In this document: positions 5,277 to 59,951 of the stretch, piece after piece
Numbering within the stretch: the first letter of the stretch is position 1
How the letters are laid out: each line of letters starts with the position of its first letter
NCBI GenBank assembly: GCA_045837725.1
Contig: JBEWZL010000202.1
Coordinates: 186,001 to 250,000 of the forward strand
DNA from: Vermamoeba vermiformis
Lineage: Eukaryota
DNA length: 64,000 bases
Direction: 5' to 3'
The notes under the pieces: generated by a model
The model's input: only the letters and a program-made list of their open reading frames with translations
Told to the model about the DNA's origin: nothing
Database searches by the model: none
Program-made: the position numbers and the translations under genes

Positions 5277-8200
5277 TTATTTTCTAGGTGCCCACATGGC
5301 AGAGTTGCCAAATTGAGGAGGCTGTGCTGCAGGTTGAGGTGCTCCACCAAAGCCGCCAAAACCGGTCGTTGGCTGTCCTCCACCAAAGCCAGGCGACGAT
5401 GAGGCAAGTTGACTGAAAGGACTTCCACCAGCTGTAATTACACAGGTTAATATTAAGTCATAGCCGTGTATGAAAGGCAACGTACTGCTTGGTGAACCAA
5501 AAGTGCTGCCAGATCCAAAGACACGAGGTGCGTTAGTAGTCGCTTGAATTTGTTGTTGTACTGCTTGAGGCTGAAGTAACGGTCAGGTAATGATAACAAC
5601 AGATTGACGTATGTCACGTTGAGGAAGCAGACCAATGACTTACGTTTCCAAGACCGAAGCCAGGAGTTGCAGGAGAGCCAAAAGTTGAAGTAGATCCAAA
5701 CGACGCTGTTGGGCCACCTAAAATAAAGGTGTTAATGGATGGAAACAAGGTATGGCTTTTGGGCACTTACCCAATGAAGAGCTTTGACCGAACACGGATC
5801 CAAGCGAACTTTGTTGACCGAATGAAGCAAAAGGCGAAGATCCAGAGCTTGGCGCTGGTGTGCCAAACGATGTTGTAGGCGCGCTAGGTTGCGCAGCAGG
5901 TGTCGATGGTGTAGAACCGAAGCTGGATCCGAAGGTCGGTTGCGTCAAGAAGGATCCGCTAGTAGTACCACCAAACAAGTTGCCAGTAGATGGTGTAGTG
6001 GTAGCTGCTGGCGTGGTTGTGGCGCCACCGAAAGGATTCGTAGCTGGTTTATTAGGCTGTGCTGCGGGTCCTCCTAATGACAAGCCAAAAGACAGGCCAC
6101 CCGTGCTCGTGCCACCAGGTGCAGTGGTAGCTGAGGGTTGTGTTGTGCCAAAAGTGCTTGGCGTTGATGGTGTTGATGGTTGTGCACCAAAGCCGAAGCT
6201 TGGCGTTGATGAGCCGAAGCCAAAGCCAAAACCTGACGAAGTATTAATAGCTAAAAAAAAAGTGTGACAAGCAAATGTCTTACCAGAAGCAGGGGTGGCA
6301 GGGGTTGTGGGCTCAGTAGGCTTAGCCGCGTCAGGCTTTGCAGGTGTAGTAGTAGCTGCAGGAGTGCCAAAAGTGCTTGTAGTACCTGTTGTCGTGGTTG
6401 CAGGAGCGGATCCCAATCCGAATGTGCTCGAAGAACCCGAACCAAAACCAAAAGTGCCAGATGTGCCGCTCGAACTACCAAATCCAAAGCCTGTGCCAGT
6501 AGTAGTGGATGTGGTTGATGGGGCTGTAGTGGCCGTGGTGCCTGTGGCAGTAGTTGTTGCCGTGCCCGTAGTACTCGTGGCAGGAGTTGATGTCGCGGGT
6601 GTTGTTGTGGCTGTGCCAGTAGTAGTAGGCTTGCTACCATCAGTGCCCGGTATCGTGCCAAAGCTGAACGTTGATGAGCCTGTGGCAGGTGTGGTAGTTG
6701 CAGCAGGCTTCGTGTCAGTCTTTGGTGAAGACGAAGTTGTGGAACCAAACGTGAAAGTGCTTGAGCCCGATGTGGGAGGCTTATCACCGCTAGTAGTAGT
6801 GCTTGGTCCGCCAAATGTGAATGAGCTACCTAACGTGGTGCCAGCAGGCTTATCAGTAGATGGTGCGGATGTCGCGGGTTTAGTTCCCGGTGAGGTCTTT
6901 GGATCGGATGTGCTCGTGCCAGTGGCGGGTTTAGTGGCGTCTGTAGCGCCCAAAGAACCAAACGAGAATGTGCTTGATGTGCCCGTTGCTGGCTTCGTGT
7001 CACCTGGCTTTTTGTCTCCGCCAGTGGGACCACCGAACGAGAACGTGTTTGCACCGAGAGATGACAACGAGCCAAAGCCTAATGAGGAAGTTCCACTCGT
7101 GCCTGAGCTAGTCGAAGGAGCTGTTGTGGCGGCGGGTTTGTTGGTATCTGACGTTGTCGTGCTTGGTGCACCAAATCCAAATGAACTCGTGCCAGGCTTG
7201 GTTGAATCGGCCGTGCCGAAGCTAAATGATCCCGAAGTGCCTAATGGCTTTGCTTGGTCTGCTGGCTTCGGAGATACTTTTGCAGCACCGCTCGGCGGCA
7301 CCGCGCCAGGACGAGGACCAGTGGTTTCAACATAACTGTCTTCTGAGTCCTCACCTTCTTCTTCTTCCTCGTCTTCCTCTTCTGGATCGTGGTAAGACAC
7401 AACTAAAAACAGCGTCAATAAAATTATTTTGTGAAACGATCAAGTGTGCACAATCCGGAATTTGAGCTCGGATAAACTGTCTAATGAGACAAGCCATCCG
7501 AAACTAATAGTTTAAACTTACGTGTTTGAGGTGCACCAGTCTTTCTCTTCTCTCCCGGCTTAGGTCCGGTCATAGCAGTGGGTGCAGGACCCTTTGTAGC
7601 TCCCGCATTGAAATTGAAAGCAGATGCGGGGTTGGAAGTAGATCCGCTCGTATTTAACGTGAACGGCGCTGCGGTCGTCGATTGGGCAGGCTTGTTGGTA
7701 TTGCTACTGCCAGTAGAAGGTTGACCGAATGAAAATGACGAGCCTGTCGTTCCAAAACCGAATGATCCAGAACCATTCAACGAGTTTCCAGAAGTTTTGG
7801 CAGCAGCGACAGGAACTTGGGGACGAGGCTTAACTGGTGATGGCTTGGCCTGCTCGGGCTCTTCGTATTCCTCCTCAGGAGTACCTTCTTCATCGTCGTA
7901 TTCCTCGTCGTACTCTTCGTCTTCTTCCCACTCTTCTTCCTCGTCTCCGTCTTGATCTTCAGCCACGCCAAATTTGATGCGGCCAGTAGTAAATTGTGTT
8001 CCGCTTGCGGATAAGGATTTAGCAGGGGATGGTGTCGGTTTGATTAACGCGGAATTGGTCAAATTAGGCACGCCAAACTTTTGCCCAGCCAAAAAGTCTT
8101 TGTTGTCGCTTGTAGCCTGATTACTGTTCGTGTTAGGCGCCGTTGGTTTTTGCTGCATTTTCTTCAACATCTCCGCGGTCGAGAGTTCTTCGTCAATAGA

Positions 8201-11200
8201 GCCCTCATCGTCGTCGATGACGCGAGCTGCGGGTTGTTTCGTTGGAGCGGTAGTAGGGAATCCAAATTGCATCGGGACAGCCGCTACTTTTGAAGGTGCT
8301 GCCGACCATTGTGGACCAGTCGAGGGCGCCGCTGAAGGGGCAGGAGCAGCAGCGAAAGGCGAGGACATCATAGCTGGCTTAGGCTGGTTCAAGAGGTTGG
8401 TTGACATGGGTGACACGCCCGCAGTAGGTGTCATCTTAGGTGTGACACTTGATATTTGTGAAGAAGGAGTGGATGTTAACGATGACGGTTGTCTGTAGCT
8501 TTGAACTGGCGTCGATGGAGTCAGCTTGAGCTCGAGCAAGTCCTCGGGAATATTGACGACGTTGGTGTTCGGCTTAGATCTGCCAGTGCTGACAAATCTT
8601 TGTTTCAAGATCTGCTTCAACTCGCGCATTCTTGAACCTGAAGGCTGCTTGTTATAGTAGTAATAAGGCATCTCCGGATCAAAGTCGATGTTCTCGGTTG
8701 GAGCGGCCATAACTGAGGTAGGATTGTACGAAAATTGCGGTTTGGATTGCAATGTGCGCGAAATTTTCTTCACCTTTTGAGCGGATCTACTTAGTAACAA
8801 ATGTTAGTATTTAGCGAACCACGCTATATTTAGGTGCGTCAAGAATGATTTACGTTAAATGACTCGATATGAAATCGTAATTTGGATTTCAAAATTGCGT
8901 TGCGGTTACTTACTGAACTTTCTTCAAGTCGTCCCAAGCAGCACTAGGAACAGGTCTGCCCTCCGCTGCCAATCGCAGCTGGATCCGGTTAAATGCATCC
9001 GAGAGCTGCTTGATTTTCTGTTTTTGATTCGCTACGATTTCGTAGTGGCTGCGCAGAGTTCCGTAAAGTGAAGCGAGAGTTGGCACCTTGAAGACTTTAT
9101 CACTGAATAAATTTTAAAATTAGTAGGATTCTTTCTATTAAAGGCAATTATCTATTTAAGGAAAAAGGAGGATCGCGTGACGTGCCAATAACATTTGTTT
9201 CATGAAACGATTTTTTTAAATTGCAATGCCGAATCGAAAATAGAATCTCAACTTACTCTCGTTTGCCACGTTTGATCATCATGGAATCTAAATATTGTTC
9301 GACTTGCTTAACGCTGCTATCTACTTCGTTGATTAGGCGTTTCAACTTTTTGCGGGTTTCTTGGGATTCGGGATCCAAGTTGCGCGAGTCCAACAAGTGT
9401 TGATAGGACTCATCTTGGCTTGCCATAATCAACGATTCAGCTTCTTGGGCAAAAGCAAACGCTAAAAATAGAAACGAGTTTAATAAAGGTCGTTGAAACT
9501 TCAAGATTCTCCGTTAAATTAAAATAATTATCGGCGACCAATTTTAACCGCACTCAAATTAGTTAAAAGGGCCCAAAATTTGATCCAAATTGCAATCTTA
9601 AACAAATGCAAAACGAATCTAAATGAATTAAATAATGCCAAAGATTCTTTCTTGGCGCCACGTACCATCCAAAAAGTTGATCTTTAAAGCGTCAACTTGG
9701 CGTTTCAATGCTTCAATTTCAACGTTATCTCCGTCTACTTTAGCCATAATATCGCTCGTTGATGCACAAAGCTGCGTCAGCTCTGCTTCAGTGAACGGGA
9801 GTTTCTTCTCAGGAGGCATTTTAGCACCTTGTTGAATAGCCTTAATCTTGTTGACTGTATCAGCGACCCATCCATGAGCACGTCTCATTGCTTCGTTGAA
9901 AATCGCGATCTGCTCCATAAATTGCTGTTCGATCCCGCGTTCAGGGTTGATCGGTCGGGAAATTAACTCTTGAGCTGTCACTCCTTGTTTGGGCTTAGCC
10001 GCTTGTTGTCCTTGAACAGGTTGAGGCTGAGGAGGTTGAGCCGCTTGAGGTGGCTTAGTCGAAGGAACATTCTGGCCGATCGAAGGTGTACCTTGGCTAC
10101 CAGGAGGTACTTGTGAGCTTGGTGTGCTCAAATTAATTTTAATAGGAGCTGGCTGTGCTTGAGTAGTAGGAGCCTATCGAATAAAAATGAATGAGAACAT
10201 GTCCCGTGTGACTTCGGCTAGATTTGCGAAGAGGTGTGTACCTGTTGTGGGGATTGCTTCGGCGCAGGTGCAAATGAAATTGCCTGCTGAGACGACGTCT
10301 TGGGAGGGGCAGCAGTAGTTGGTGCAGTCGCTGTCGACGGTGCCTTCGGCTTCGCATCAAAAGTGAAGCTTGTCGCGCCAGATCCAAATCCAAAGTCAGT
10401 AGCCGGGGCTTGCTTGGGAGGCGCTAAGAAAAAACGCTTAATAACTTGTGTATAAAAGTAATAAACAGATACTACGGAAATGCGGTGAATCGAAAAATCT
10501 TCGGCAGATCTCGATCCAAATTAATTGATGCACAGATCATTAAAGATCAAAATAATTCACGATCGTGTGCTAAAATTAAATCTGTGTTTTAAGGATCTGA
10601 ATTTAAACGGCAAGGAGGCAGGGAAGGTGGCCGAAATGAAAAATTTGTAGATCTGCTCGAAAATGATGCCACTTTCGCGATAATGCGATAAGAATGCATT
10701 CCAATTATTGTTGATTTAAGAATTTGCTAAAGCACTTCAGCTAAAGAGATGGATAATTTCAATGACGTGGATGCAGAAAATTATTGGGAGTCTCGCGGCA
10801 ATGACTCGCAGTACAGCGACCTCAAAAACTTCTATTCGAGCGCAGAAATTCAAAAAGACTTGAATAGAGACGCGAACGCGCTTCATAATGAGGTCGAAGT
10901 ACGAAACATTGGAAAAGAACTCCACGACAAGCAATTACAAAAGCAAGAACGCAGATCACCGTCAATAAATAGAGAAGAAAATAACAAAAAAAGATCTAAC
11001 AATCCTTTGTACGAAAATGTCACGTCAGACGAATAAAGAAAGCGGGAGTAGATCCGGAAAATTAAAGAGAAAAATTTCAATTCAACTAAACAGGAGCAAT
11101 TTGACTTACCAGCTTGAGCTCTTCGCTGAACAGATGGAGAACTAACAGAAGACGGCCTACATTCAAATCACATTAGAATAGGTGCAATTAATATTAAATT

Positions 11201-27921: not shown

Positions 27922-30536
27922 ATGCAGGCAGTGGGCGTAAAACGAAAAAGAGAGGAACTAGATCAAGACCAACCGTTAAAAAAATCTAAAATAATGGTAA
28001 ATAAATTTACACTTAATTTCTAATATTACTGATGCTAATAACATAAGGGCTTCAATAAAATTCGAATTAAATTTAATATTAATTTTTGAATATTTTCGTT
28101 CGATTTACTTTTGAATTAGGATACTTTATGTGGCCTCCCTGACGATTGTTGGCAAATAATATGCGAATATTTATCGCTCGAATCAGCTTCAGTGCTCTAT
28201 TTTGCGTCAAAATCATTTAAACGAGTCCACGCTCTCTTTCTGGCGAGCTATTTCAATCGAGTTCATGGTACGTATATATGCTACATATTAAAGTAGTTAA
28301 TTAATCATAAATATTAATCTTTAATTAGGTTTACCAACGGATGTGGTTCCTTTTTTGCCTTCCTCTGTCGCGAGAGCTACTTCTAACATCGGTACGTGTT
28401 CTGCGATTATTTAGAGCTCTGTATAATAATCTAATATTGATAGATGTGACTTTACTACTCGAAAAATCAGTGTATTTGGCGTTATAATATTAAAATGCAA
28501 ATAGGTGTGCTATTACTCTTCGAAAAAGCAGTGTGTTTGGCTGAGACTAAGAATTACGTTGAGCTCGCTGAAACGTTGAAAAAACTCTTGTATCGAGCCG
28601 AAATGGTAGCCGTAACAAATTATGTCCGAACTATTGCACCGCAAAACTGCAGGGATTTGATCGATGAGAAGCATCTCAAGTCTGTTTGCTATTCAGGTAC
28701 GATTCTACCGGATCTCGCACAAATAACGTTGCTTATCGTTGTTGCAGATTTTTGTCGTAAAATTGAGAGTGTATGGGAAGATTCGGATAGTAATACGTGC
28801 AATACAACGCGTAAGTATTAAATTTTCAGTGACCTTGATTATATTTTCAAGATCTGAAGAGTATTATAATTTTACAACAAAATCGAAATTTGATGTATAT
28901 TAAGAGATAGTATTATCTATTAATATTAATGACTATTTTAAATGCGCAGAGAAATCAGCGTTTATTTGGATTGGTAAAGACCGCCGTTACATCGCCGTTA
29001 AATGCGAGTACCACGATTTATATACACATGGTGATGGACAAGGATGGTTGAACTTTAAAGTTACTGTCGTGTTGAAACAATTAGGAGTAGACAATAATAA
29101 TGAGACAGTTGTCTTTGAATTTAAGAAAGATCCAAAGAACACTGATGGGACTCATGAGATAAAGGAGTGCATTTTTGGTAACGACAAATACGAACAAAAG
29201 GAATACTTTAATGAGAAGGATATTCATAAAATAATGGATTGGCTAAAAGTGGATCTGATCGGCGAAAATTCGTCAAAAAATTTTATGGAGGTATTACTTA
29301 ATTTGGCTGTCAGTCAAAGGTCTACTCTGAGAAACGAAGATGAAAATCCTAAATTTGACGAATACGATGAGGATTATCTTGACGAAGAGCAGATCGACGA
29401 ATTGGCCGAAAAATACAACAATGAAATTAACTTAAATGGTGATATGGCGATGGAAATATCGAAGTTAATGCAATTCTACTTGAGTGGTGTTACTCCACAG
29501 GGATCAATATTTTCTTGGGCCTTTAAAGCACGATTTGTACTGAAAAGATTACTTCGAAAATTAGCGTTTATCCAATGCATCAACAACGTACGTAATAATT
29601 TCCAAATAGCTATGAAATTAGATTAAGTAGAGCTTAGATAGACGGGTACTAATAACGATGAATATTTAGCTTGCCAGAATTAGCTCCGATGACGCGAAAA
29701 ACGAATTGCGCGATTTATTCGCACGAGCAAGAATGGGAGGTAGGGTTATATCTCCATATATAATAGTGTTATTTTACTAATAGTAACCGATCAAAAGGTT
29801 GTTCAGCCAAATTTGCGCGTTTTGAAGTGCCGAAGACTCGCTACTCAAAGTTGAAGCCATGTTTCAGCAACAAACAATCCTTAGAGTTAATTTTGCATCC
29901 TAAACGTACGTATATAAGACATTAGAATCGTATATCCATTTTTGTTAAGCAAATTCGAATTGGGTGGTACGTTCGAAATCCGCGTGAAGCGTACAATCTC
30001 GGCCGATCTCCCGCTTTATCTTAATATGAAACCTTTACGGACATAACATGAACGTGATGTCATTGAGGGTCTCATATGGTACACTCTATATAACGAGTCT
30101 CACATGATAGTGGTGCGGAGCTGTGAGGACCGAGATTCGCCCCCTTCGGAGCGGATCAGGCAACAAAAAACAACACTAGCACCTAACTTTAATACTGTTC
30201 TTATTCTTATATTTAGCTGAAATGTCGTTCTCCTTCGGCATTGAATTTAGTTACGAAGGAAGCCCCGGAGATTTCTCATCGGAGTTCAGTGTGGGTCTGA
30301 GCATTCTGCCAGCAGGAACATGTCGGTCCTTCAATTTCGAGTCAGCAGTCCAGTGCAAAAAACGATTTTATCGTGACCAATTTAATGAATTGATCCAAGA
30401 AATGAATTTGCAGCATGCGACTGAAAACGATTGGCTGGAATTAATTTTGGCTTATATGGAGCCTCCAGGACCTGCCGACATGAAATTCGAAGCTGATTAT
30501 CATAATGATGAGGATGATAACGAAGATGAAGAATAG
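27922..30536 (+). CDS. F-box protein, tandem copy 1
   Basis: MQAVGVKRKRE.. (NLS-like) is spliced to LCGLPDDCWQIICEYLSLESASVLYFASKSF (F-box). Multi-exon, with an uncharacterised C-terminal region. Confidence 0.75.
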
Positions 30537-30790: not shown

Positions 30791-33488
30791 ACAAGCAGTA
30801 GGTGCAAAACGAAAGAAGAGGACTAGGAGAGGAACTAGATCAAGACCAACCGCAACAAAATCAAAAGAATGGTAAAATATTATGCAAATTATTTATTATC
30901 GCGCATCAATATAGTACAGATATTACTGAAGCGCAATTTAAAGGAGATGTTCAAAAGGAATTTAAAAATTATTTAAAAAAAAAAAAACTGAAGGGGGAAT
31001 GGGGAAAGGAAGAGGGAGGGGGGGGAGATGGGATGACAACCGGGCAAACAGAGACAAGCCAATGAGAGGAGAGGGAGAGGGGGACTGCGCTGAGAGGCTG
31101 ATAAGAGCAGCCAAGGCCCCCAGGGCCGCCCAGGGGGGGGTCCAGGAGGGTGCCCGAAGAGAGGGGGAGAATTGGAGGAAACAAAAAACAAAGGGGGAAG
31201 AAACAAAAATGGCCTCTTTTTTTAATACAACTTTAAATTAATTACTTATTCTCAGTTTTGAATTAGGATACGTTATTTGATCTTCCCAATGATTGCTGGC
31301 AAAATATATGTGAATATTTATCGCTCGAATCAGCTTCTGTGCTTTATTTTGTGTCAAAATCATTTAGACGACTCCACGCTCTCTTTATGGCGAGCTATTT
31401 CAATCGAGTTCATGGTATATATATATGCTACATATTAAGGTAGTTAATTAATCATTGGTATTAATTCTTAATCAGGTTTATCAACGGATGTGGTTCCTTT
31501 TTTGCCTGCCTCTGTCGCGAGAGCCACTTCAAGCATTGGTACGTGTTTTGATGCATTAAAACGCGTTATAATATTAAAATGCAAATAGGTGTGCTATTAC
31601 TCTTCGAAAAAGCAGTGTGTTTGGCTGAGACTAAGAATTACGTTGAGCTCGCTGAAACGTTGAAAAAACTCTTGTATCGAGCCGAAATGGTCGCCGTAAC
31701 AAATTACGTACAAAAGAATATGCCATATAATTTAATCGATAAGAGGCACCTGAAGTCAGTTTGTTACACAGGTAGCTGATCTGTAGTTTTCAGTGCAATA
31801 GATCGCTAACTTCAATCTCCGTTGCAGATTTTTGTTACAAAAATGAATATGTGTTGGATTATACAGACAGTTCTACTTGCAGCACGACGCGTAAGATACT
31901 TTCAACAAGTGCACTTGCTTGATTTTTTGTCTCGCTAGCTTGTAATTAACCGAAGTTAGTCCACCGAAAATATATTATCATGCCATAATTACTAATAATT
32001 AATACGACTATTGCTAATGATTATTTGGCTTAGAGAGATCAGAGTTTATTTGGGTCGGCAAAGACCGCCATTACATCGCCGTTAAATGCGAGCACCACGA
32101 CTTATATACACATGGTGATGGACAAGGATGGTTGAACTTTAAAGTTACGGTGGCGTTGAAACAATTAGGCGTAGACAATTATAACGAGACAATTGTCTTT
32201 CAATTTGAGAAGGATCCAAAGAATGACGATGGAACTCACGTAATAGATGAATGTATATTCTATAGCGATAGTTCTGAGGCCAAGGAATTCTTAATGAACG
32301 ATGATATTCGTAAAATAGTGGATTGGCTGAAAGTGGATCTGATCGGCGAAAATTCGTCGAAAAATTTTATGAAAGTGTTGCTTGGCTTAGCGGTCAGACA
32401 ATGGAGATACAGGGGAGAAGATAGCAATAAGATCAAGCCAGATGACTATAATGAGGATAATACATTTGCGGTTGTGGAGCGCGACGAGCAAGTCGAGAGA
32501 ATGGCCAAAAAATATTACGACGAGATTAAAGACTTGAATGGCAATATGGCACAAGAGATTGCAAGGTTAATGCAATTTTATTTGAGCGGAAGCAATCCTT
32601 GGAATCTTCAAAGTACAATTTGTACTGAAAAGAATACTTCGAAAATTGGCTTTCATTCAATGCATCAATAAGGTACGTAATTAATCTCGATTGTAAATAA
32701 CGATATAAGGCATATTTATGACATAATAATTTTGTTTTTCTGTTGTCCTAACGCTACTTTTGGTAGTCAAACTTTAGCTCCGATGAAGCGAGAAAAGAAT
32801 TGTTGGACTTATTTGGTCGGGCTTATTTCCTTAGTAAGTCGAATGACGTTATTTTAAAGTCACTACTCTTACTAAGTAAATTTTTTGGTTGCCAACAGTA
32901 TGCGATTTCGAAAATGTGCAGTTCGAGGTCCCAAAAACGTCATACCATAAAAAGAGGCTTTATTTTAGCAAAAAACAGAATGTGGGTGTTGTTTTGAAAC
33001 AAAGAGGTATGTATTGGTTGAGGAAATCATGTACTTTGTTTTTGGATCCAGTTTTATTTCGTTTAACAGTACACGTTCTATTCGATTGTTAAAGTAGTAT
33101 AGTATGTTTTAACTTATATTTTTTCATTACAAGTTTTCATTTATTAATGTGCAATATTATTATAACATACTACTACTTAGATAAAGATCCGGTGACAATG
33201 TATTTTGACGTTACATACGAAGGAAATCCGGGAGATTTCAATTCAAGTTTTGTGGTTCAAATCAGTTCTGTTGCAAAAAAAACTCGATCATTTTGGTTTT
33301 GCATCGATACATTCAAAAGCACATTTGCAGCTGAAGAGTCAATTAGAGAGCATCTGAATGGCATGAATTTGCAGCACGTGACGGAGAACGATTGGGCTGC
33401 ATTGTTTTTGGCTTATATGGAGCCTCCTAGTGCCGAGGAGATGCAAATTTACGTTGATTATGACATCCATGAAAATGACGAAAATTGA
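30791..33488 (+). pseudogene. F-box protein, tandem copy 2; apparently disrupted
   Basis: Exon-by-exon paralog of copy 1 (LFDLPNDCWQNICEYL). The ATG aligned with copy 1 is absent, and there is a +1 frameshift near 32602 (..FKVQFVLKRILRKLAFIQCINK lies in the shifted frame). Assembly error is an alternative explanation. Confidence 0.6.
30960..31230 (+). repeat. Purine/G-run-rich low-complexity tract in intron 1 of F-box copy 2
   Basis: Many G4-G9 and A runs; it has no counterpart in the ~120-nt intron 1 of copy 1. Confidence 0.6.
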
Positions 33489-36724: not shown

Positions 36725-38743
36725 ATGAGGATCGAGGAGCCTTTATTATCGATGATAGGAGGAAAAGTGCTGATTTTGCTATTGAAGGAAATCTCGTCGT
36801 TATTTTCATGCGTAATTTGAAAATAAGAAAGCACGTGCTAAGCTAAATTAAGCTGACGTAACCATTGGGAAAACAGAACGAACCTATTTTTGATAATGGA
36901 GAACACGTAGCATCGAAATTCAATAGTTCAATGTTTTACTTCTTCCTATTTTGCCAGACGATTTCGTTCTGGTGCGGATTCGCCACCTTTTGGATCTACC
37001 TGCACTGGAAGTACGTTTAAAGACCATTTAAAATTTTGCAAATATTCTCATAATATTATAATCAAGTAACAACGTCATATCATGGTATTCAGAAGGCTAA
37101 TTAAATTCTTTAGCGAATTAAAAAATGCGCCTCAAATTTTACTGCGCCACAACGAACAAGTGAAGCCTTATTTACCGTTCCTATTGCTCAATATACATCA
37201 CGTAGTACCCAATCTACCGCTATTAGTGCCGAGAATGGATAAACTCGTTCCTGCATTTCCCGTGTTAATGAAAGATCCGAAATCTGCACGTGTACTAATG
37301 AAGAATTTGAACAAAATGGCGCCACATATGGACCTATTAGTCGATAATATGGACAAGTTATTGCCGCATTTTGACAAGCTTCAGCCTCACTTGCAAATAC
37401 TTTTAGACAACGCAGATGTGCTCGTCCAAAATTTCGATCTGCTGATGAATAATATCGATCAGTTAGCACCACGAATGGACAAACTAGGTCCATATTTACC
37501 CATATTAATGAAGAATATGCCAAAGATGGCCCCGCACATGAACTCTATGATGAAAAATTTGGATGCGTTAGTATCACATCTGGATCAACTTGCACCGTTC
37601 ATGAACGATTTGATCGACAATATTGATATGCTAGCACCTCACTTGGACATGCTCTCGAGCTACATTGACGAGATGGCACCTCACATGTCACAACTAATGC
37701 CGCACATGAAGCAACTTTTGCCCTTGTTGCCCAGCTTGAAACCGCACATGAAAGTGCTCGTAGCGCAGATCGATCTGTTGGCACCAAAAATAGATGTGTT
37801 ATTGCCCAATATGGACATACTCTTGCCATATATGGACCCATTAATGCGAAACTTTAGCACTTTGTACCCGCACATTGACGAGCTTTTGGCACGAGTCGAT
37901 CAACTTAAACCTCACTTGCCTTTTTTGGTAAAGCACATCGATCAGCTCGCACCGCACATGGACGCCTTGTTGCCTTATATGGATCAGTTAGTGCCGATGA
38001 TACCGTTGTTAGAGCCTCACACTGACAAACTTTTGGCGCACATGAACGAGCTCAAGCCACACTTGCCGCAATTGATCCCGTTAATGCCTGACTTATTGCC
38101 TTATATGGACATACTCTTCGACAACATGGACGCACTCTTGCCTAAAATAGACCTTATCCTTCCCAAAGCAAAGCAACTATTGCCTTATTTGGGCCGGTTA
38201 AAGCCGTACCTCCCAGCACTCATCGAAAACGCTGACAAATTACTGCCGCACACCGACAAGCTTTTACCGCACGTGGATGCGTTAATAGGACACTTGCCTA
38301 TTATTCTCAAGTATAAGAAAGAAATTCTCGAACATGTGGATCCGCTCGTTGAACACATCGACATTTTGGTCCCATATTTGGACTACTTAACACCGCATTT
38401 GCCTTCTTTGATACCTCAACTCGAAGAAGTATTGCCAAATATAGCAGCATTAATTAATCAGTTCGGAAAAGCATTGCCATACACGCACGGTCTTTTGCCC
38501 GCTGCTGCAGGTCTTCTACCAGGGCTCGGAAAATTAGCGGCAAAGATGCAGCAGCGCCAAGACAAGAAAAAAGAGAAAAAAGAAGAAGAGCAGCGCAAAG
38601 CCGAAGAGAAGAAAAAAGAAAAAGAGGCCAAGAAGAATACGCCAACTAACGAAAAGAAAACTAACAGCAGTCCTAAAAAGGAAAAAACCAGTGTTCTTCC
38701 GAGTACGTTCACTGAACCAATCGATGAGTACTCTAACATGTAA
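36725..38743 (+). CDS. Predicted membrane-anchored proline-heptad repeat protein of unknown function (5' exons inferred)
   Basis: 553-aa ORF at 37082-38743. An in-frame upstream exon encodes the TM-like MFYFFLFCQTISFWCGFATFWIYLHW, with a possible first exon from the ATG at 36725. The C-terminal tail is Lys/Glu-rich. Confidence 0.85.
37139..38533 (+). repeat. About 65 tandem 7-aa (21-nt) degenerate repeats, consensus L-h-P-[HYN]-[MLI]-D-x
   Basis: For example LLPYMDP LMRNFST LYPHIDE LLARVDQ LKPHLPF LVKHIDQ LAPHMDA LLPYMDQ. The register is broken only once, by a 3-aa insertion. Confidence 0.92.
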
Positions 38744-40844: not shown

Positions 40845-42333
40845 TTAATAATACTCAATTTGCAAATTCTTGTTATTAGTTGCCCCTATAATTTTCTGCC
40901 CCACTAATTTGACGATTTCATCGCGCAAATACATTAAATTATCGGGCACAATATCTGCTTCGGTGGGATCTGAATCGTTGTTCCATCTCGCGGTCCAAAT
41001 AGTTGCTTGCTTCTGTAATTCTTCGAATTGCCGGATTTGGGTAGGATTATCGACCCTTTCTAATAGCACTCCACACCAATTGGCAGCTAAAATCAAGATC
41101 AGTTCCGGATGGACCATTTTTTTTAGATTCGCTTACCACCGATTGCCTCGACGACTGTATTAGCGTGAGCCACAATAGCTGGAAGAAATCGAGCAGGAGG
41201 GTAGTACATGAAAGAGACTACAAGGCTCGATTGAGGCGAAAGCTCTGCCGGAAGCGCATCTACGACTTCCATTTTTGGAACTAATCCATACTGCGATAGA
41301 TGGTCGCGTACTGCGTTAAACAGAACATCAATTGACTTGGTATTCATAGCACACGTCTTCTTATCAAAGTAGACAGTAAATTGTCGCGAGAGGTTCTGGT
41401 ATTGAATCTGCTTCTGCTTTTCTTGCCGAATTTTTTCTTCGCGAAGTCTTTCTTCTGCTTCTTGTCGCGCCCTATCTTCTTCTCGTTGTCGCTTTAATTC
41501 TCTTTCGCGTTCTTTTTCTCGTTCTCTTTGTTGCCGTTTTTCTTCTTCCTCGTAAGATCGCTGTTGGTACGCTTTTCTTTCCAGATCTCGGAGCTTTTCT
41601 TGCAAGGCCGCATTATCTGAAACAAGATTCTCCACCTTATTCAAAAGGTTATTGGCCAACTTGTGGAGCTCTTTAACTTCTCCTTCGAGTCGTGAAATGG
41701 TTGCCGCTGAATCCAGTCGTGTTGCAAAAATATTGCCAGTTGTAACTACGGGGATGCTAGTAGCGTGGAAGCCTATATAGTGGCCAAGTTAAATATATTA
41801 ATATAGATCTATTTATTGAAAAGTTCATGTAGCGTACTTTTTGGATTTGGAAGTCTGTCCAAATCTTTCAACGAATGCTGAACAAACGTCCGCAAGCGAG
41901 CTCCATAGGCATCAACGATAGCTTGCATTTCTACCAGTGAGTTTGCGTTTTCCAATTTCTATAATAAACGAAATTAATTCTTTATGAAACTTGGATGTAG
42001 ATGCATGACAACTTACTTCGATTATTTTAGCGTTTTCCAATTCCATAAATGATTGAAAATTATCAGCGGGTTGATAGACAGCCTTGTTTTTTGAAGCCTT
42101 CGAATACCACGGTTTCTTTTCGAATTGCTGCGTCAGTTCATTTTTGAACTCTGAGAAGATCTCTTCGCCTAAGTTTGTGGCGTTATGCTGATACATGCAT
42201 CTAAAATTAATATATTAATACATATTTTGAAAAGACTTAATGCTTACATTACTTGTGTGCGGAAATCCCAATTCAGTGCATCCGATGAGGAAGTCAAAGA
42301 TTTGCCCACTCCGTCATATCTTTTGGAACTCAT
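40845..42333 (-). CDS. Protein of unknown function with a central charged coiled coil and a C-terminal alpha/beta domain
   Basis: The exons join in frame from MSSKRYDG..; there is an E/R/K/Q-rich helix, and the protein ends NLQIEYY*. Confidence 0.7.
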
Positions 42334-42699
42334 AGCAATATCAGCTCGCAGGTGATTTGTTTGTGGTTTTAAGTTTCAACGTTTGTTCAGAATTAACCAA
42401 AAAAAAACTGCGTCTAAATTTATGGCTGTTGAGAATGCGCAATTCTTTTATGATAAACTTATTCTTTTATGCTTCTATGGCAATAATACTGCGAGCTAAC
42501 TAATTAAGAATACGATTCTACCTAGGCTTTAATACATGACACATTCAAACTCATGCTAGTCCGAATTCTTTTCCGGCCTCTTTCTGATTGGTCAGAATTC
42601 TGTGAGCACGTGGTCTGCAGCATAAAAGAAATTCAAGTTCAGCGTGTTCAATTCAACAACTTTCATAAGTTCTAAGCGCAGCAACAAACAAACCTCACT

Positions 42700-45409
42700 C
42701 ATCGGAAAATTGATTCAGGCGGCCCTTCGCAGATCGAAAAGGTCCTTTACCGTTTATTGGAAAAGATTAAAGTATTCCTATTCGTAAGTGTATATATACG
42801 TTGTTATTATTCATTGCATTAACTCTATCTTATCCAAGCTTGTTGACGGATCGGGTTCTGTTCCACCTACCGGATTCCAAACAATGATCAATACCGTGCG
42901 AAGTATTGCCAATCGCATTAATATAGATCATTGCTATATTGGTGTATTCCAATACTCGACTAAGGTTACTCCTTCGTGCACGCCGACCTCAAACTTAAAG
43001 CAGTTTCATCAAGCGCTGGACAGTAAGTTTATTAAAAAAAAAAAGTTGAAAGAATAGCTCATAATAATTCTTTTAGGCATGATTCAAGACCGACAAGGCA
43101 ATGAGGAGGCTTTGGCATTAGATGCTGCCGTCAAAGCTTTGAAAGAATGCCCGTTGACTGGAGAACGGCTTATCATTCATTTGACCGATGGAGGCTTGAT
43201 GGGCTCGTGGAAAGCAGCCGCTACCAATATCAAGTATACTGAGAAGGTAAAAATGCTTCTGAAAACAATCTTAAATTAAATTTAATTTGTGTCAATTTCA
43301 GATCCAAATTATGAGCATCGGTGTTGGTGAGCACATTGACGCTCATAATATCCGCGAATTCGCTAGCCCAGAGCTCGCTTTCTTCGTCAAGGACTACCAA
43401 GAATTGCAAAAAATGTTTCAATTCTTGGATTTGGCTCCGTTGCCAGCTCCAGTCTTGAAACCTGTGCACGAGAAGAAGGTCGACGCTCGTGAGATCCACT
43501 TGGAGTTGGAAGCGTATCCCTTAGCTGCGGATGTGAAGGGATATCACGTTGAAGTCGTTGAGTCCTCTGCATCGGAATGGAGATCCGCCGGATTCAGTCT
43601 TAGTAAGTTTGCACAAATTAAGTCTTTTCTATAAAATTGTAAATATATGCAATAGAAATATTTCTAACAAATTTCCCACTACAGAGCCAGCGATTAGTGT
43701 CAAGGACAATATTCGACCAAACACTACGTACACTGTGAGAACCTACGTAGAGCTCAAGAACGGTCGGGTTAGCACTCCAAGCAACGAAGTCACCGTCACT
43801 ACTTTGCCGCCGAACCCGCACACTTCGGTCGTTAAAAACCTTCCTGCTGCAGTCGCTGCTCGAATCAAAGACTGTCAAGAGTTTACATTCTGCTCTGCCT
43901 CTGTGACTATGGGCATGGACAATTACAATGCTTTGATTGCTGGTGTTCCTGGTGCTGGTACGTACCAACAACAACAATAATAATATCTAGTTAAAGTTGA
44001 GCTCAAACTAAATACTTTGCTTTCTTTCCTAAATAGGCAAATCATCCACCATGACAGCTGTCAACTCAATGTTGTGTGGCAAATATCAGCCGTGCGGTGC
44101 TAACGGTGAAGTCAACGAGACTTTGACACGTGTCGTGACTGAATTTGAAGCACTGAAAAAATTGTCTGTGATTGATACTCCGGGCATTAGAGATGAAAAT
44201 TTGAAGCTCTACGAGAAGCATCTCTACTACGGCGGTGTGCCTGCTGGTTACGACGAGAGAAATCCCGATTTCACCAAAATTAGAAATGTCGATCAGATCC
44301 CGATCCAAGAGCAAGTTCATTGCGTGGTGCTTGCCGTTAGCTGCGAAACACTTGTCGATGCTCATATCATGACGATGCTCAAACAGCAATACGAAATTAT
44401 TTTGAGTAAGGATAACAGGAAAAATCCCATAGTTACGAAAAACTAATATTTTAATTTTCTCAGAACAAGGTCGTAATTGCATCATTTTGCTCACTAAGGT
44501 CGATAAAGTTGACGCGCGCATCAAATTGAGCGAGCCTGCCACTTTGTCGTTGGTCTACGAGAGCGGTATTGTAATGAATTTCCGCAAGAGCTTGGCGACT
44601 CATTTGGGCTTGAACGTCGATTGTGTCTTGCCTATTGTCAGCTACAACGGTAATTATTAGCTTAATTTTCTAACTGCGCAAATAATTCGAAATTAACGTA
44701 AAATGTTTTTTAGCGCCTATGAACCCAATTCCTTGGGTTAGCATGTTGCACTTGGATTGGATCGAAAAAGCCCTCCAAATGTCTGATGGCTTCTGCTCGA
44801 CATTTTTGTCTGTCGAAAAGTCAAAGCGTTTGAAAGTACGTTTCGACTAATTAAGCTAAAAGATTCATGAAAACTAATCATGAAAACTATTCACAGAAAA
44901 CATACTTGTCAACAGACGAGCTAATGGCACAAATATTCAAGGATAAATTGGCTGTTACCGGAGCTACTTCCGTTGTTCCGGCGCCAACCAATTATTCCGC
45001 TTCACCTGAGGCGGCATCTACCTCTCCCGCACCAACGCCTGCCACTGAATCGCGTGGCTCAGGTACTACGACTACTGTAGCTTCTTCTGCACCTGGTACA
45101 GCAGCAGTAGATGATAGCGCCGAATACGAAATTTTGATTCGCCGTGAAGAAGATCCAGCGGATGATTGGTCGTCAATCTACTTGCGTAACAGCGACAGAA
45201 CAACTGTGGCACTAAAGGCCGCTATTTGCGAGAGATACCCTCCCCGAACTCCCGCCGCAATTGTTAAGGTTGTAGAAGAACGCAAGGTTGGCGCAAACAC
45301 GATCAACAAGAAGGTCGAGTCGAATCAAGACGTTGGTCATCTGATCAACTCTGCAATGAAGGGCAACATGGTCTTCGTGGTCGTTTCGTTCAGCGTTGTT
45401 AGCAAATAA
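42700..45409 (+). CDS. VWA + FN3 + IFI44-like P-loop GTPase + C-terminal beta-grasp-like domain protein (start codon uncertain)
   Basis: FLVDGSGSV / HLTDG / IGVG (VWA with MIDAS); GYHVEV..IRPNTTYTVRT..SNEVTVTT (FN3); GVPGAGKSS, IDTPG, QVHCVVLAV, LLTKVD, VYES and VLPIVSY (IFI44-type GTPase). Confidence 0.85.
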
Positions 45410-45667
45410 TTGTATTTTACGCTACGGAAATAAATTTGAACCGATCCTCCGTTCACAGTACTTCGCTTTGCTATGCATAAAACGTTGACGGAAAAGATTA
45501 CCGGACAATCAAATTCCCATGGATTGTCTGTTTTCGCAATTAAAAAAGGACTGGCCATAAGTCAGTTTGTTTTTTTAATCTGAAAAGTTTATTACGTTAA
45601 GAAATATAAATAATCTACAAGTGATAATACAACCGCTCCAAGCTTTAGTCGACTGAGTATAAATGAA

Positions 45668-56125: not shown

Positions 56126-59100
56126 TTAAGGCTGCGAGATAGTAGGCACAGTGTTCGGGATCGAGCAGTATCCAGCGGAGTTGGATGCGCAAGTCGCGTT
56201 AATGTTGTAAAATCCTCTCCAAGAATAGACGTTGTATAATCTAGACCCTTGAGACTCCCAGTACTCGGCTGAGCTTCCAGTTTGCCATGGATCGAGCATC
56301 TTGATGTACAGATGCGGTGCTTGGAAGAAATAATACGTGCCATTGCCAGCCATAACTTGCGCTAATGATGCGGCTTGGAGTAAATTCGTCTTTCTTGAAT
56401 AGTCTTTCCAGCTCAATGAAATGTTGAAAGTTGTGCCTGCGGGATAATTCGTCGCGAATAAGACCCATTGGCCAAACGGGACTTGATGCAGACCAACGCG
56501 CATGGTACGAGGTGCGCCCTGGTTGATCCACACGTGCCAACCGACCTTTGACGCGCCTGTCACTTGCGGGGTACGTGTCATTTTGCATGTCTTGTTGACT
56601 TGTGACACGCCAGCAGGAAGATAGAACAAGCTCGTAACACCAGCCTATAATATTAATATTTTAATATCTAGCTTTAAGATAAGAAAAAATTGGGTTTGGA
56701 AGGTGAAATTTGCGAGGAAAACTTACGTCAACATTCGCGACGGACTCGGATCCGTAGGGACCTCCGCCGTCATAGTCGATCCAGCCAGGCACGAGAGGAG
56801 CCAAACTGATGACTTCTCGGCTGCCTTTATCGCAATAATGAGCTTTCCAATCGGGCTGATACACGCACGTGTTGTCGTAGGCCCACCAAGTCGGGTACGA
56901 GCCGATGATTTGCGGCACGCTACGACCGACAGTAGTTCCGTCGTAGTCATAGATACTGAAGTAGCGTGATGAACCCGTATCACGGTAGTAGTTACGCACA
57001 CGCTGGCTGTATGGCACGTTAGTGTACGTGATGTTCTTGACGGCGGCGATGCCTTGAGGCTTGTACACATCGCTGTGAGTCAAAGCAGTGAAGATGATGT
57101 TGTCTTGAGTGGGGTCAAGAGGAGCGTTAGGCACGGGCAAGAAGTTTCTGTACTCGACGTTGGTAATGATTGCCTTGACGTCCGTGTCATAGAACTCGAA
57201 ACCGTTGGACTTGCGACTAGGCGAAGCCAAGTACTGCGTGTTGTTAGTCGTGGCTGCAATGAGGGCTTGATCGAGGTAACTGCTGAAGAGACGGCCAGCC
57301 TTGACACAATCGTGTGACTCGTACTTTGTGACTTGAAGTTTGATGCCCCAGAACATAATGCCAAGATGACAGGCAAAAGTCTTGGTGTTCGTGAAGTTGT
57401 TGAAGGCAACGGGATTACGAGACTGGCGTCCAGTATCATACTTGAGCAATCCAGTGGCTGTGTCAGTCCATAATCGGCCTCCCATGTAGATGCAAGGAAT
57501 GCCCTCGCCGACGTTGGTAAAGCCCGCAGAGTGTGCCGTATTGCCGTCAAACTCGAGTACAGGCCTGAGTTCTGGCACCACGGAGACGTTTGCGCTCAAG
57601 CCAATAGGCTTTGCCAAATTAGGAAAAGCGAAGCCGGCCCAACCACCCGAAGCAGCATTGCCGAAAATACGATTGTAAGCATTGGTGATGTAAAAACCTG
57701 ATGCGGCAACGTCGGCGGGCAAAGTCAAGTTTTCGTTTTGCGTGAAGACGTTGACGCCAGCTTGGCCAGTGATAGCATTAGCGTAGATCGTGTGAATATG
57801 CGAGGCCAAGTTATATGCAATAGTATTGTTCTCTTCAACACCTTCTTCCAAGTAATAGCAGAATCCACGTACATCATACGCGACGTTACGAATGACGCTG
57901 GCTTGGTGCGTGCCGTGAATAGAGACACAACGGAAGAACGAGCGTTGAACGGAACAATCGCGCATGAACGAAGTCGGGGCCTGACCAATCATGTGGAAGT
58001 GGAAAGGATACCGCGCCAAGACGTTAGTTTGACCCATGCGATAGGCACGCACTCCGCTGAACCGGCCTTCACCACGGACCATCACGTGACCACCGAAAGA
58101 TTGGGTTTCAGAGTCGGGTGAGCCTTGAATGGTAATTCTACGCGATAACAAGCCAACTTCAGCTTGGTACTCGGCACCGGCGTAGTGGATGTAGACAAAA
58201 GTTTCGTTGAATTGGATTCTACGGCCAGAGATAGCAGTGATAGTCATAACTTCGTTCTTCTTAGTCTCTTCGTCACGGAGGTCAGTTGAAGTAACAACGA
58301 CTTGTTGGCCCACGTGCCAGTTAACGTTGTCTTGGATCCAAATCTGGTTGTCGCCGGGCCAAGCAGTTGCGGCCAAACGAGTCCAAGTATAGTGATATTG
58401 CTTGCCGTGAATATCGATCTTGCCAGGGACACCAATACCCTTGCTGCCCATGAACGGACCAATGGTGTCGGATGTGCTCTTCGATCCGTACAAAGTAATC
58501 GTGATCTCGGAATAGAGACGGCAGTTCTGCGAGCCAATGCGCAAATGACCTTGCACGAGCATAGCCTTGATGTTCAAGTTGATAGGAGCGTCGTTGAAGA
58601 TCAACTCGCTGCCAGCAGGAACGATGATCTTCTCATAGACAGCCGTTGAAAGTGAGCAAGAAGTGATCAAGACCTTCGAATTGGCAGGAATCGTAATGAC
58701 GGAACTCGGTGAGGGAACAACACCACCCCACGTCGCGTTATCGTGCCACAACTTGAGACCAGCTTGCAAATGCGGGCACTCAGTTCTGTTGTTCAGATCC
58801 AACGTGGTCGAGGGCTTGCGAAGCGTGACAAACTCGGCGTTCTTAGAAATCAAAGTAGGCGTTGTAATGGGCGTTGGCAAGACGTCAATGCGGAGCTTGC
58901 GGAATTGCAGCAAAATTGCACGACCGAACGAAGCTGTTGTTCGGAAGTAGGCGGCAAGAGGCACGTTAGGAGCCAAGTTTCCCTTTGACGAGACGGTTCC
59001 TTCGAACTTGACCCAAGTCGTGGACCAATTGGTGAAGTTAGCTGCTGAAGGCTGATAGTCATATGTATAGGTCGAGTTGGTGCCGGCACTAGGAGGAATA

Positions 59101-59951
59101 GGCTGGTTGGCAAAAGTTGTTTTGAACAAGGCAAATTTCACTTCCGCAGGCGTGATGGCGGTGTCGTTAGTGCTGACTTCAAACGAGAACTTGTACTTGA
59201 AATCCGCTTGGTTGCGAACAAAAAGCAAGTCAGTCGTCGGCACGAGCCACCATTGTGTCGAGTACCAGTTGGGCAACACAGCGTTCAAAACCAATCCGGT
59301 ACTGTCCGTGGTGTATGACAGTGTCGGAGACCACCAGTCAGTAGTAATCCTCCAGCCAGTGGGGTATATTGAGACTTGCGGCCGAGTGCTCGAAAGTGCT
59401 GGTGAAGTGGGAACCGTATCAACGGCAACCGGATCTGCGGAACACGCAGCATTGACGCCACTGAGCATAGCGTTGGCGCCTTCAGAAAGGGTTAGCGTTA
59501 GTGTATGTTTATAGTACTCGACAAGGGCTACACGTACCAAAGATAGCGAGACCCACTGCTTTAGTCTTGGTGTTCAGTGAAAGGGCCAGACCGACGAGTC
59601 CGAGCAATGAGATACTCGCTGTAGCAACCGAATCACGGTGCAGCAATGCACTAGCGCGTTCCTATAGTAATAGGGCATGGTCAGAATCATTTGATTCAAT
59701 TTCAGTCGTTGCAACCGGACAAAAAAATCTTTGTTTCAGATCCGCAGATCAAAACTTGAATTCGTTGATATGCTGCCCGGTGCTTTTGAAGTGTTAGTAG
59801 TACGTACCAATTGCTTCAGAGACATGAGTTTAGCGTCGTTGGATGACGTAGTGCTTTGGTATTGGTTGACGCATTGCGTGGCACTGGATGTGGCTGCAAG
59901 ACCACATAGGAGAGCCACAGTGAGAGTGGCTAGTAATAAGTGACCACGCAT
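56126..59951 (-). CDS. Secreted G8-domain/beta-helix protein (TMEM2/CEMIP/PKHD1-like)
   Basis: Signal peptide; WHDNATWGGVVP..VITIP (G8), TWTRLAATA, AEVGLLSRRI, MGQTNVLARYPFHFH, RCVSIHGT and CYYLEEGVEENN. Confidence 0.92.

Follow-up and report, generated by a model that had tools for sequence, protein, structure and literature searches.

The 64,000-nucleotide stretch analysed here, which belongs to contig JBEWZL010000202.1 of a Vermamoeba vermiformis assembly and is referred to below as the window, contains on its + strand at 42.7–45.4 kb one gene for a GTPase related to the animal proteins IFI44 and IFI44L. Reading of the stop-to-stop frames in the DNA resolved this gene into nine exons and eight introns. 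All eight introns are of the GT..AG type, have a length of 54–82 nucleotides (nt) and a G + C content of 0.19–0.30, compared with 0.47 in the exons. The open spliced frame comprises 730 codons. Its product is 58% identical over 728 columns to the homologue P0001 (719 amino acids) and 41.5% identical to the homologue P0002 (740 amino acids), and both alignments are free of gaps at the exon junctions. The order of the domains is a VWA domain, a beta-sandwich of seven strands, the GTPase module, a low-complexity linker of 75 residues and a C-terminal beta-grasp-like unit. A tblastn search of the window with the spliced product matched this single locus, and a second copy was not found in the 64 kb. 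An Rfam scan of the whole window gave no match.

Transcripts of the gene were found in sequencing data. A word search showed that 20 sequencing runs contain part of the stretch, several of them with about 0.6 of the words, which matches an intron-less copy. In the contigs assembled from the runs X4, X5 and X8, which stem from three studies, all eight introns are skipped exactly at the predicted places. The three runs are read as RNA because their contigs lack the introns, with the RNA label itself being a guess. The X5 contig (2273 letters) spans positions 42678-45454 and the X8 contig (2287 letters) positions 42839-45460, where it runs on into loose A-rich sequence. This points to a poly(A) site behind 45460, some 50 nt past the stop codon. 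Outside the 5′ end, the contigs of X4 and X5 show no difference from the window over 2.2 kb and that of X8 shows one (A>G, 44587). The gene is expressed, and the VWA domain, the GTPase and the last domain are encoded on one mRNA. The sequence-only reading of this locus had considered that transcripts might show VWA and GTPase to be separate genes; a single spliced contig spans everything from the VWA to the last domain. Near-identical spliced transcripts occur in the runs X4–X16, which are filed under four organism labels (B, C, D and E), none of which is the label of the likely source (A).

The motif order of IFI44/IFI44L, which had been recognized in the GTPase module at the outset, was recovered in full, as every listed motif is present in the stated order (Table 1) and corresponds column for column to named IFI44-like proteins. 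An alignment of 18 G domains has in common G.xGxGKS, the switch-I Thr, DxxG, G-x-h-P-x-x-Y, D-x-h-H-C-V, LTKxD, VYxS, h-P-h-x-N-Y and a closing helix. The general features of TRAFAC GTPases, i.e., G1 GxxxxGK[ST], the switch-I Thr, G3 DxxG, G4 [NT]KxD and the GTPase fold, are present as well. A phmmer search with P0001 against 1.84 billion representative proteins yielded 165 matches at E ≤ 1e-3, the best 150 of which were sorted by the position of their best-matching stretch. Fifty-one of these 150 listed matches cover the G region only and 16 run co-linearly from the VWA into the G region, while the rest are confined to the VWA region or are short fragments. TLDc precedes the G domain in 13 of the 51 listed G-region matches (12 above the Pfam cut-off, P0057 below it); other heads among them are Ig, zf-BED and EF-hand domains, or the G domains occur in tandem. 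Half of the ten clusters that were looked up bear the name interferon-induced protein 44-like or IFI44L and stem from sturgeon, lizard, wrasse, amphioxus and oyster, and the others comprise a mussel TLDc protein, a protein of the jakobid Andalucia godoyi and three other or unnamed records. The A. godoyi protein (P0128) exhibits the full IFI44 architecture, with TLDc (66 bits) followed by the G domain; therefore, the TLDc-headed form is not confined to animals. The window's own G domain recovers the same set of proteins, and a search with residues 300-560 of P0001 recovered P0001 and P0002 alone. A profile–profile comparison (hhalign) of 20 VWA-linked with 13 TLDc-linked proteins resulted in a probability of 100% and an E-value of 1.6e-43 over 254 columns, with the aligned region extending from the helix before the P-loop through the helix after the last strand. 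Judged by these sequence comparisons, the G module is homologous over its whole length to the module of animal IFI44/IFI44L, and this kinship is strong.

The designation as an IFI44-like GTPase consequently holds for the homology, but not for membership in the IFI44 family proper. No TLD domain was matched by Pfam at E ≤ 1 in P0001 or in the exons of the window, and its place is taken by the VWA domain and the beta-sandwich. That the GTPase follows a VWA and a second domain, then read as FN3, rather than TLDc had been proposed from the sequence; the Pfam scans and the P0001 model bear out the VWA and a beta-sandwich in this place. In a quick maximum-likelihood tree of 71 G domains, which is unrooted and has no outgroup, a group of 43 rows with all 13 TLDc-linked domains and 30 others is split from 28 rows holding all 21 VWA-linked domains with 95% support in the Shimodaira–Hasegawa-like approximate likelihood ratio test (SH-aLRT). 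Another group of 24 rows, 18 of them VWA-linked, received 86% SH-aLRT support. The trio of window protein, P0001 and P0002 has 100% support and sits on a long branch (1.83), which joins between the other two groups together with P0111. An approximately unbiased (AU) test, in which the constrained tree surpassed that of the quick free search by 27 log-likelihood units (p-AU 0.89), bears on the position of P0111 only. Without TLDc, and with a G domain that branches outside the TLDc/animal clade, the protein is not part of the IFI44 family proper; it belongs to a sister branch, headed by VWA, of the IFI44-type GTPase superfamily.

The VWA domain passes the Pfam cut-off in 14 of 17 co-linear relatives. 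Named sources of VWA-headed proteins are the amoebozoans Nematostelium gracile, Luapelamoeba hula and Physarum polycephalum, the heterolobosean Pharyngomonas kirbyi and one MMETSP transcript, and 15 of the 20 VWA-headed clusters looked up are environmental or Logan records. TLDc-headed proteins were found in animals and the jakobid Andalucia, VWA-headed ones in Amoebozoa and Heterolobosea. The window protein combines VWA, beta-sandwich and IFI44-type G module co-linearly in one polypeptide. A word-index search with the family profile A1 gave eight matches at E ≤ 1e-10 which, besides P0001, were all VWA or FN3 proteins, as words from the VWA domain flooded the candidates. Searches of metagenome contigs (with P0026 and P0001) and of viral contigs (with P0001) returned pattern matches and no relative by tblastn, a result that says nothing on prokaryotic or viral homologues. 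In the literature, at the level of search listings and abstract openings, no paper on an IFI44-like GTPase behind a VWA head was found. In the accessible part of a review on TLDc proteins, IFI44 is mentioned only as the most distant TLDc protein.

At the N-terminal side, exon 2 alone matches the Pfam VWA family (PF00092) with 31.1 bits against a cut-off of 23.8, and P0001 does so with 60.8 bits. The structural model of full-length P0001 has a mean predicted local distance difference test score (pLDDT) of 82.4 and a predicted template modelling score (pTM) of 0.59. Its VWA part aligns with that of complement C2 (Z 23.2, 186 residues, root mean square deviation (rmsd) 2.3) and with the A3 domain of vWF (Z 22.4, 172 residues, rmsd 2.1). 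Fold searches with the full-length model gave matches confined to the VWA or to the VWA and its adjoining domain, and because of these VWA matches a separate model of the G domain was made. The VWA had initially been described as having an intact metal ion-dependent adhesion site (MIDAS). The domain itself as well as the DxSxS and TDG motifs are indeed there; the site, however, is not complete, as only four of its five positions are kept and the Thr column holds Asn in the window protein, in P0001 and in P0002. Among the 25 members of the family alignment this column is Thr in 17 and Asn in two (P0001 and P0002). This alignment is without a row for the window protein, whose Asn was read from its QGNEE motif, and positions were judged by alignment columns, not by coordinates. 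The following domain had been called FN3. Seven strands are predicted at residues 196-284 of P0001, which supports a beta-sandwich, but fn3 (PF00041) had no Pfam match at E ≤ 1 in the exons of the window or in P0001, and the sandwich may be of either the FN3 or the Ig-like type. Three of 17 relatives do show fn3 matches, with 23.0–25.3 bits at a cut-off of 25.

Behind the G module, the linker consists to 45 of its 75 residues of A, T, S and P and is predicted to be disordered. The C-terminal domain has the predicted order strand-strand-helix-strand-strand-helix-strand and no Pfam match in exon 9 or in P0001. KHA matches were seen in four relatives, all at or below the cut-off (best in P0014, 29.2 against 29.6 bits), and some other relatives carry zinc ribbons in this position. 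Language-model neighbours of the window's C-terminal domain include GRHL1_C (0.92), GT-1 ubiquitin-like, ANKRD40_UBL, TDP-43_N, KHA (0.82), PB1 (0.82) and the Par3 N-terminus; these scores are leads only. All of them are, as we take it, beta-grasp domains known for self-association. Predicted topology and these leads support a putative beta-grasp-like unit and are compatible with the ubiquitin/PB1-like unit of about 95 residues suggested earlier. A prediction of a two-copy complex of exon 9 residues 70-170 gave scores of 0.00 and 0.00 without controls and bears neither way.

Table 1. Positions of the VWA-headed GTPase gene and its parts, counted from the first letter of the window
Feature	Position	Strand	Basis
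Extent of mRNA in spliced contigs	42678..45460	+	X5 and X8 contigs
Start-codon region, with four letters absent from the window: TG after 42701, C after 42706 and G after 42715	42701..42715	+	Letters present in transcripts of X4, X5 and X8 at full depth
Introns	42784-42838, 43023-43076, 43247-43301, 43603-43684, 43958-44036, 44406-44463, 44650-44713, 44836-44896	+	GT..AG
Exon 1 (part readable in the frame of the window): helix at the N-terminus and first VWA strand	42709..42783	+	Frames, alignment, transcripts
Exon 2: VWA core, DGSGS at 42845-42859	42839..43022	+	PF00092, E 3.4e-7, 31.1 bits
Exon 3: VWA; QGNEE at 43094-43108 (Asn at MIDAS Thr position), LTDGG at 43181-43195	43077..43246	+	Alignment
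Exon 4: end of VWA, Pro-rich hinge at 43437-43463, first half of beta-sandwich	43302..43602	+	Weak match to VWA C-terminus; strands 196-251 of P0001 model
Exon 5: second half of beta-sandwich, helix before G domain, first part of P-loop	43685..43957	+	Alignment, model, profile comparison
Exon 6: G domain from P-loop Lys-Ser; TLTRVV, DTPG, GGVPAGY, VHCVVLAV	44037..44405	+	63% identity to P0001
Exon 7: G4 LLTKVD, LVYES, LPIVSY	44464..44649	+	G-domain alignment
Exon 8: long helix closing the IFI44-type module (LHLDWIEKAL, 44746-44775)	44714..44835	+	Helix 240-294 of G-domain model; also covered by the profile alignment
Exon 9, first part: A-, T-, S- and P-rich linker of 75 residues, with disorder predicted	44897..45121	+	Composition; pLDDT <50 at P0001 residues 579-622
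Exon 9, second part: C-terminal beta-grasp-like domain (predicted, about 95 residues), then TAA at 45407-45409	45122..45409	+	P0001 model elements 625-714, pLDDT 74-90
GVPGAGKSS (G1)	43942-44047, split by an intron	+	Alignment
TLTRVV (switch-I Thr)	44120-44137	+	Alignment
DTPG (G3)	44174-44185	+	Alignment
GGVPAGY	44231-44251	+	Alignment
VHCVVLAV	44315-44338	+	Alignment
LLTKVD (G4)	44487-44504	+	Alignment
LVYES	44550-44564	+	Alignment
LPIVSY	44628-44645	+	Alignment

Compared with IFI44 and IFI44L, the window protein has the whole GTPase module in common, from the leading helix over G1–G4, GxhPxGY, DxhHCV, LTKVD, VYxS and hPhxNY to the closing helix. It differs in its head, which is VWA and beta-sandwich instead of TLDc, in the added disordered linker and C-terminal beta-grasp-like domain, and in switch II, where it has DTPG and the animal proteins commonly have DTMG. 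The G-domain model finds its best or longest structural matches among GIMAP/AIG1, Toc34/Toc33 and septin GTPases (GIMAP7 with 2.4e-7; Toc33 with Z 15.1 over 207 residues), which likewise have a switch II of DTPG plus a hydrophobic residue without catalytic Gln. Their kinship by sequence, however, is weak and partial (E 1e-5 to 1e-8 over less than 140 residues), and they lack the IFI44-specific motifs. IRG proteins, which act in animal cell-autonomous immunity, resemble the module from the P-loop to switch II (IIGP1, E 1.4e-8), but this match covers only about 90 residues and the helical domain architecture of IRG proteins is not seen in the window protein.

From these comparisons a mechanism can be proposed. 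The face of the VWA around its partly altered MIDAS (D, S, S, N, D) would bind a protein partner. The G module, with its G1, switch-I Thr, G3 and G4 motifs intact, would bind GTP, and the aspartate of TKVD predicts specificity for guanine. By analogy with GIMAP, Toc34, septin and IRG proteins, the module may act as a nucleotide-dependent self-association switch. GIMAP, Toc and septin GTPases dimerise, and it is because of this behaviour, together with a DTPGI lacking the Ras-type catalytic Gln, that a switch activated by dimerisation is put forward. The C-terminal beta-grasp unit might then serve as a further module for self-association or recruitment. A role in stress or defence, which the sequence-only reading had put forward as that of a cytosolic sensor GTPase in cell-autonomous defence, would be no more than an analogy with IFI44, GIMAP and IRG proteins. 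An expressed VWA-headed IFI44-type GTPase with a beta-grasp-like tail, working in the manner proposed, is regarded with moderate confidence as the best overall explanation.

Several points weigh against this explanation. GTP binding, self-association and partner binding are read from motifs and by comparison with neighbouring families. As Asn takes the place of the MIDAS Thr in the window protein and in P0001 and P0002, its two closest relatives, binding that depends on the metal may be changed or abolished. The beta-grasp assignment draws on a predicted topology and on language-model neighbours at 0.82–0.92, and a single origin of the VWA fusion is not shown by an unrooted tree with the trio on a long branch. 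The DNA of the window itself lacks a start codon. Moreover, the presence of the transcript in three studies fits constitutive expression at least as well as induced expression, and the single copy in the window speaks against a local expansion as is common in immune gene families.

The last two points lead to an alternative that is possible, though rather unlikely, namely that the same architecture and homology belong to a housekeeping scaffold GTPase which organizes membranes or the cytoskeleton in a septin- or Toc-like manner and has no role in defence, in which case the kinship with IFI44 would be silent on immunity. In addition to the single copy, it is favoured by the spliced transcripts in the three studies, the word depths of which (92, 68 and 11, compared with 46, 32 and 6.8 for a neighbouring gene) are a poor measure of expression, by the conservation of the architecture across Amoebozoa and a heterolobosean, and by Pfam Septin matches above the cut-off in the family members P0108 (33.2 bits) and P0107 (41.8 bits). 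Interchangeable heads on one NTPase module, on the other hand, are typical of conflict-type proteins, and TLDc, VWA, Ig, EF-hand and zf-BED heads are swapped in this manner here. The nearest named relatives are, furthermore, associated with immunity in animals, and IFI44 homologues are reported to be upregulated in a cnidarian antiviral programme without interferon (bioRxiv 10.1101/2025.01.24.634691). Neither the swapped heads nor these associations are direct evidence on the amoebal protein.

A much wider interpretation would see the IFI44-type module as an ancient driver of cell-autonomous immunity throughout the eukaryotes, with an origin before animals and interferon. TLDc on the one hand and VWA with beta-sandwich on the other would be alternative sensor heads, and the VWA would capture a ligand derived from a pathogen or from damage and thereby trigger GTP-dependent assembly via the G module and the beta-grasp domain. 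This is a speculative and doubtful extension. If it were true, the amoeba would be a tractable model in which to approach what IFI44 and IFI44L do biochemically in humans.

The missing start codon raises the question of whether the copy in the window is functional. The coding frame contains a TAA upstream at 42673-75 and no ATG before exon 2, and the ATT codon at 42709-11 of the uncorrected frame aligns with Met1 of P0001 and P0002. The absence of an ATG from the first clear exon, as reported from the sequence, is thus correct for the DNA of the window and incorrect for the transcripts of the three sets, which carry one. With the four additional letters of the transcripts restored (Table 1), an in-frame ATG appears at base 42701 and the N-terminus reads MSDKLIAGGPS, fitting the N-termini of P0001 and P0002. 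As the transcripts are otherwise identical or nearly identical over 2.2 kb and yet all carry the four letters, the deficit is very likely a local consensus error of the assembly and not a start-less allele. That the deficit is real and the window holds a broken allele or pseudogene, in which translation could start only inside exon 2, after DxSxS, appears improbable. The lack of an in-frame ATG between the upstream TAA and exon 2 would agree with it, and the proportion of 0.98, not 1.00, of the sampled words in DNA runs of the possible source can be read either way. However, the contigs of X4 and X5 with no other difference, and of X8 with one, point to the same or a near-identical strain in which all transcripts have the four letters; three small deletions within 15 bases beside perfect identity look like a consensus error, and apart from this the frame stays open throughout its 730 codons. 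A start in a separate upstream exon, with its ATG at 42423 or 42553, was also considered and rejected, as no usable donor follows either ATG and the transcript depth is 0 at 42496-42619. RNA editing as the source of the four letters appears unparsimonious for a nuclear spliced gene. Because of the four missing letters, automatic annotation of the assembly would lose the start codon, and the gene would be mis-annotated or lost.

That the likeness to IFI44 is only superficial, with the GTPase being a member of a different TRAFAC family (IRG/IIGP, GIMAP/AIG1, septin or Era/EngA), is very improbable. In Pfam, P0001 matches nothing more specific than the generic MMR_HSR1 (25.0 bits). None of the solved GTPases matches P0001 at E ≤ 1 in phmmer, and the family profile reaches mt-EngA with 1.8e-9, IIGP1 with 1.4e-8, septin-9 with 6.7e-8, Toc34 with 7.5e-7 and GIMAP4 with 7.9e-6. 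The separate G-domain model (pLDDT 93.4, pTM 0.89) has GIMAP7 as its best Foldseek match (2.4e-7). Structural alignment with VIA-align produced a flat list of Z 15.5–12.5, including the chain 7pub_IA of a mitoribosome small-subunit assembly intermediate, aIF5B, EngB and Toc33 (rmsd 3.8 for the latter). The best fold matches are solved Era, EngB, Toc33 and GIMAP7 structures, which, like the profile matches to IIGP1 and septin-9 at about 1e-8, could be taken in favour of one of these families. Yet, the profile matches cover only about 44–135 residues each and are some 34 orders of magnitude weaker than the 1.6e-43 obtained over 254 columns. GxhPxGY, DxhHCV, VYxS, hPhxNY and the closing L.L..L...A helix are, moreover, common only to the IFI44-like set. 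No solved family stands out in the structure searches, and no IFI44 structure is among the matches listed from them, so that the fold searches could not return one. A search of BFVD with the G-domain model gave only generic giant-virus GTPases (E ≥ 1.9e-6). The placement of the G module with IFI44 rather than with a housekeeping TRAFAC family, on which the sequence-only reading depended, is hence upheld.

The location of the protein was assessed by a crude hydropathy scan. Its highest Kyte-Doolittle mean over 19 residues is 1.59 and lies in a strand of the G domain, and neither an N-terminal hydrophobic stretch nor a membrane span was seen, in line with the earlier remark that no signal peptide is obvious. 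The protein of about 730 residues is probably soluble and cytosolic. The VWA and the beta-sandwich together (model residues 16-285) align as a unit with the VWA and Ig domains of ANTXR2/CMG2 (Z 20.8, 236 residues aligned, rmsd 5.3; Foldseek E 7.4e-13). ANTXR2, however, is an extracellular receptor that spans the membrane and has every MIDAS position, and at 16–18% identity the resemblance is one of arrangement which does not imply kinship. A secreted or surface adhesion protein, for which the typically extracellular location of VWA and FN3/Ig-like domains in animals and the ANTXR2 ectodomain as best two-domain structural match might be cited, is hardly credible, as the N-terminus read from the transcripts enters the first VWA helix directly without a hydrophobic leader, no membrane span is present and a GTPase switch is generally known to need cytosolic GTP.

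Other parts of the window carry further genes. A divergent neighbour on the - strand (42017-42384) is represented by transcript contigs at 42017-42200 and 42248-42384, which are separated by a 47-nt intron (CT..AC on the + strand). Its coiled-coil product is rich in E, R and K, and a DDRGK match remains below the cut-off (25.0 compared with 27.8 bits). The distance of about 290 nt between the transcripts of this neighbour and of the GTPase gene suggests a bidirectional promoter. On the + strand, two open reading frames (ORFs) in tandem at 28904-29626 and 32021-32671 encode similar products without Pfam match that share stretches such as ...GKDR.YIAVKCE.HDLYTHGDGQGWLNFKVTV...; they are a local duplicate pair of an orphan family. 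Another ORF on this strand, of 557 codons at 37070-38743, consists almost wholly of a short helical repeat (L.PH.D.L...) and has no Pfam match that exceeds the cut-off. The - strand carries at 56661-59573, in a stretch of higher G + C (0.49–0.50), an ORF of 970 codons without introns, which scores 108 bits for a G8 domain and 172 bits for a CEMIP-type beta-helix. Also on the - strand, the region 5718-8803, with 0.52 the most G + C-rich stretch of the window, includes two long, nucleoporin-like ORFs without Pfam match, in which T, S, G and P are abundant and FG-type dipeptides numerous.

In human medicine, few interferon-signature genes are used as widely as IFI44 and IFI44L. To our knowledge, their biochemical mechanism is still unclear, and a literature search on IFI44 and IFI44L returned nothing useful on mechanism. 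Interferons are a vertebrate feature, and the amoeba is a host without an interferon system. The IFI44-type G module is not an animal invention, as it occurs in protists behind another head and with what are predicted to be extra assembly modules. What is new here is that the IFI44-type GTPase is combined with another head and an additional tail, in a gene for which every exon junction is supported by transcripts. The finding of such a GTPase in a protist behind VWA instead of TLDc indicates that this type of GTPase is older and more modular than its animal name suggests. It provides an evolutionary frame for the family, in which one modular NTPase is combined with swappable heads, and it adds a candidate to those components of animal innate immunity that have deep eukaryotic roots. 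At the same time, it opens a way to test GTP binding, self-association and ligand capture genetically outside the animals.

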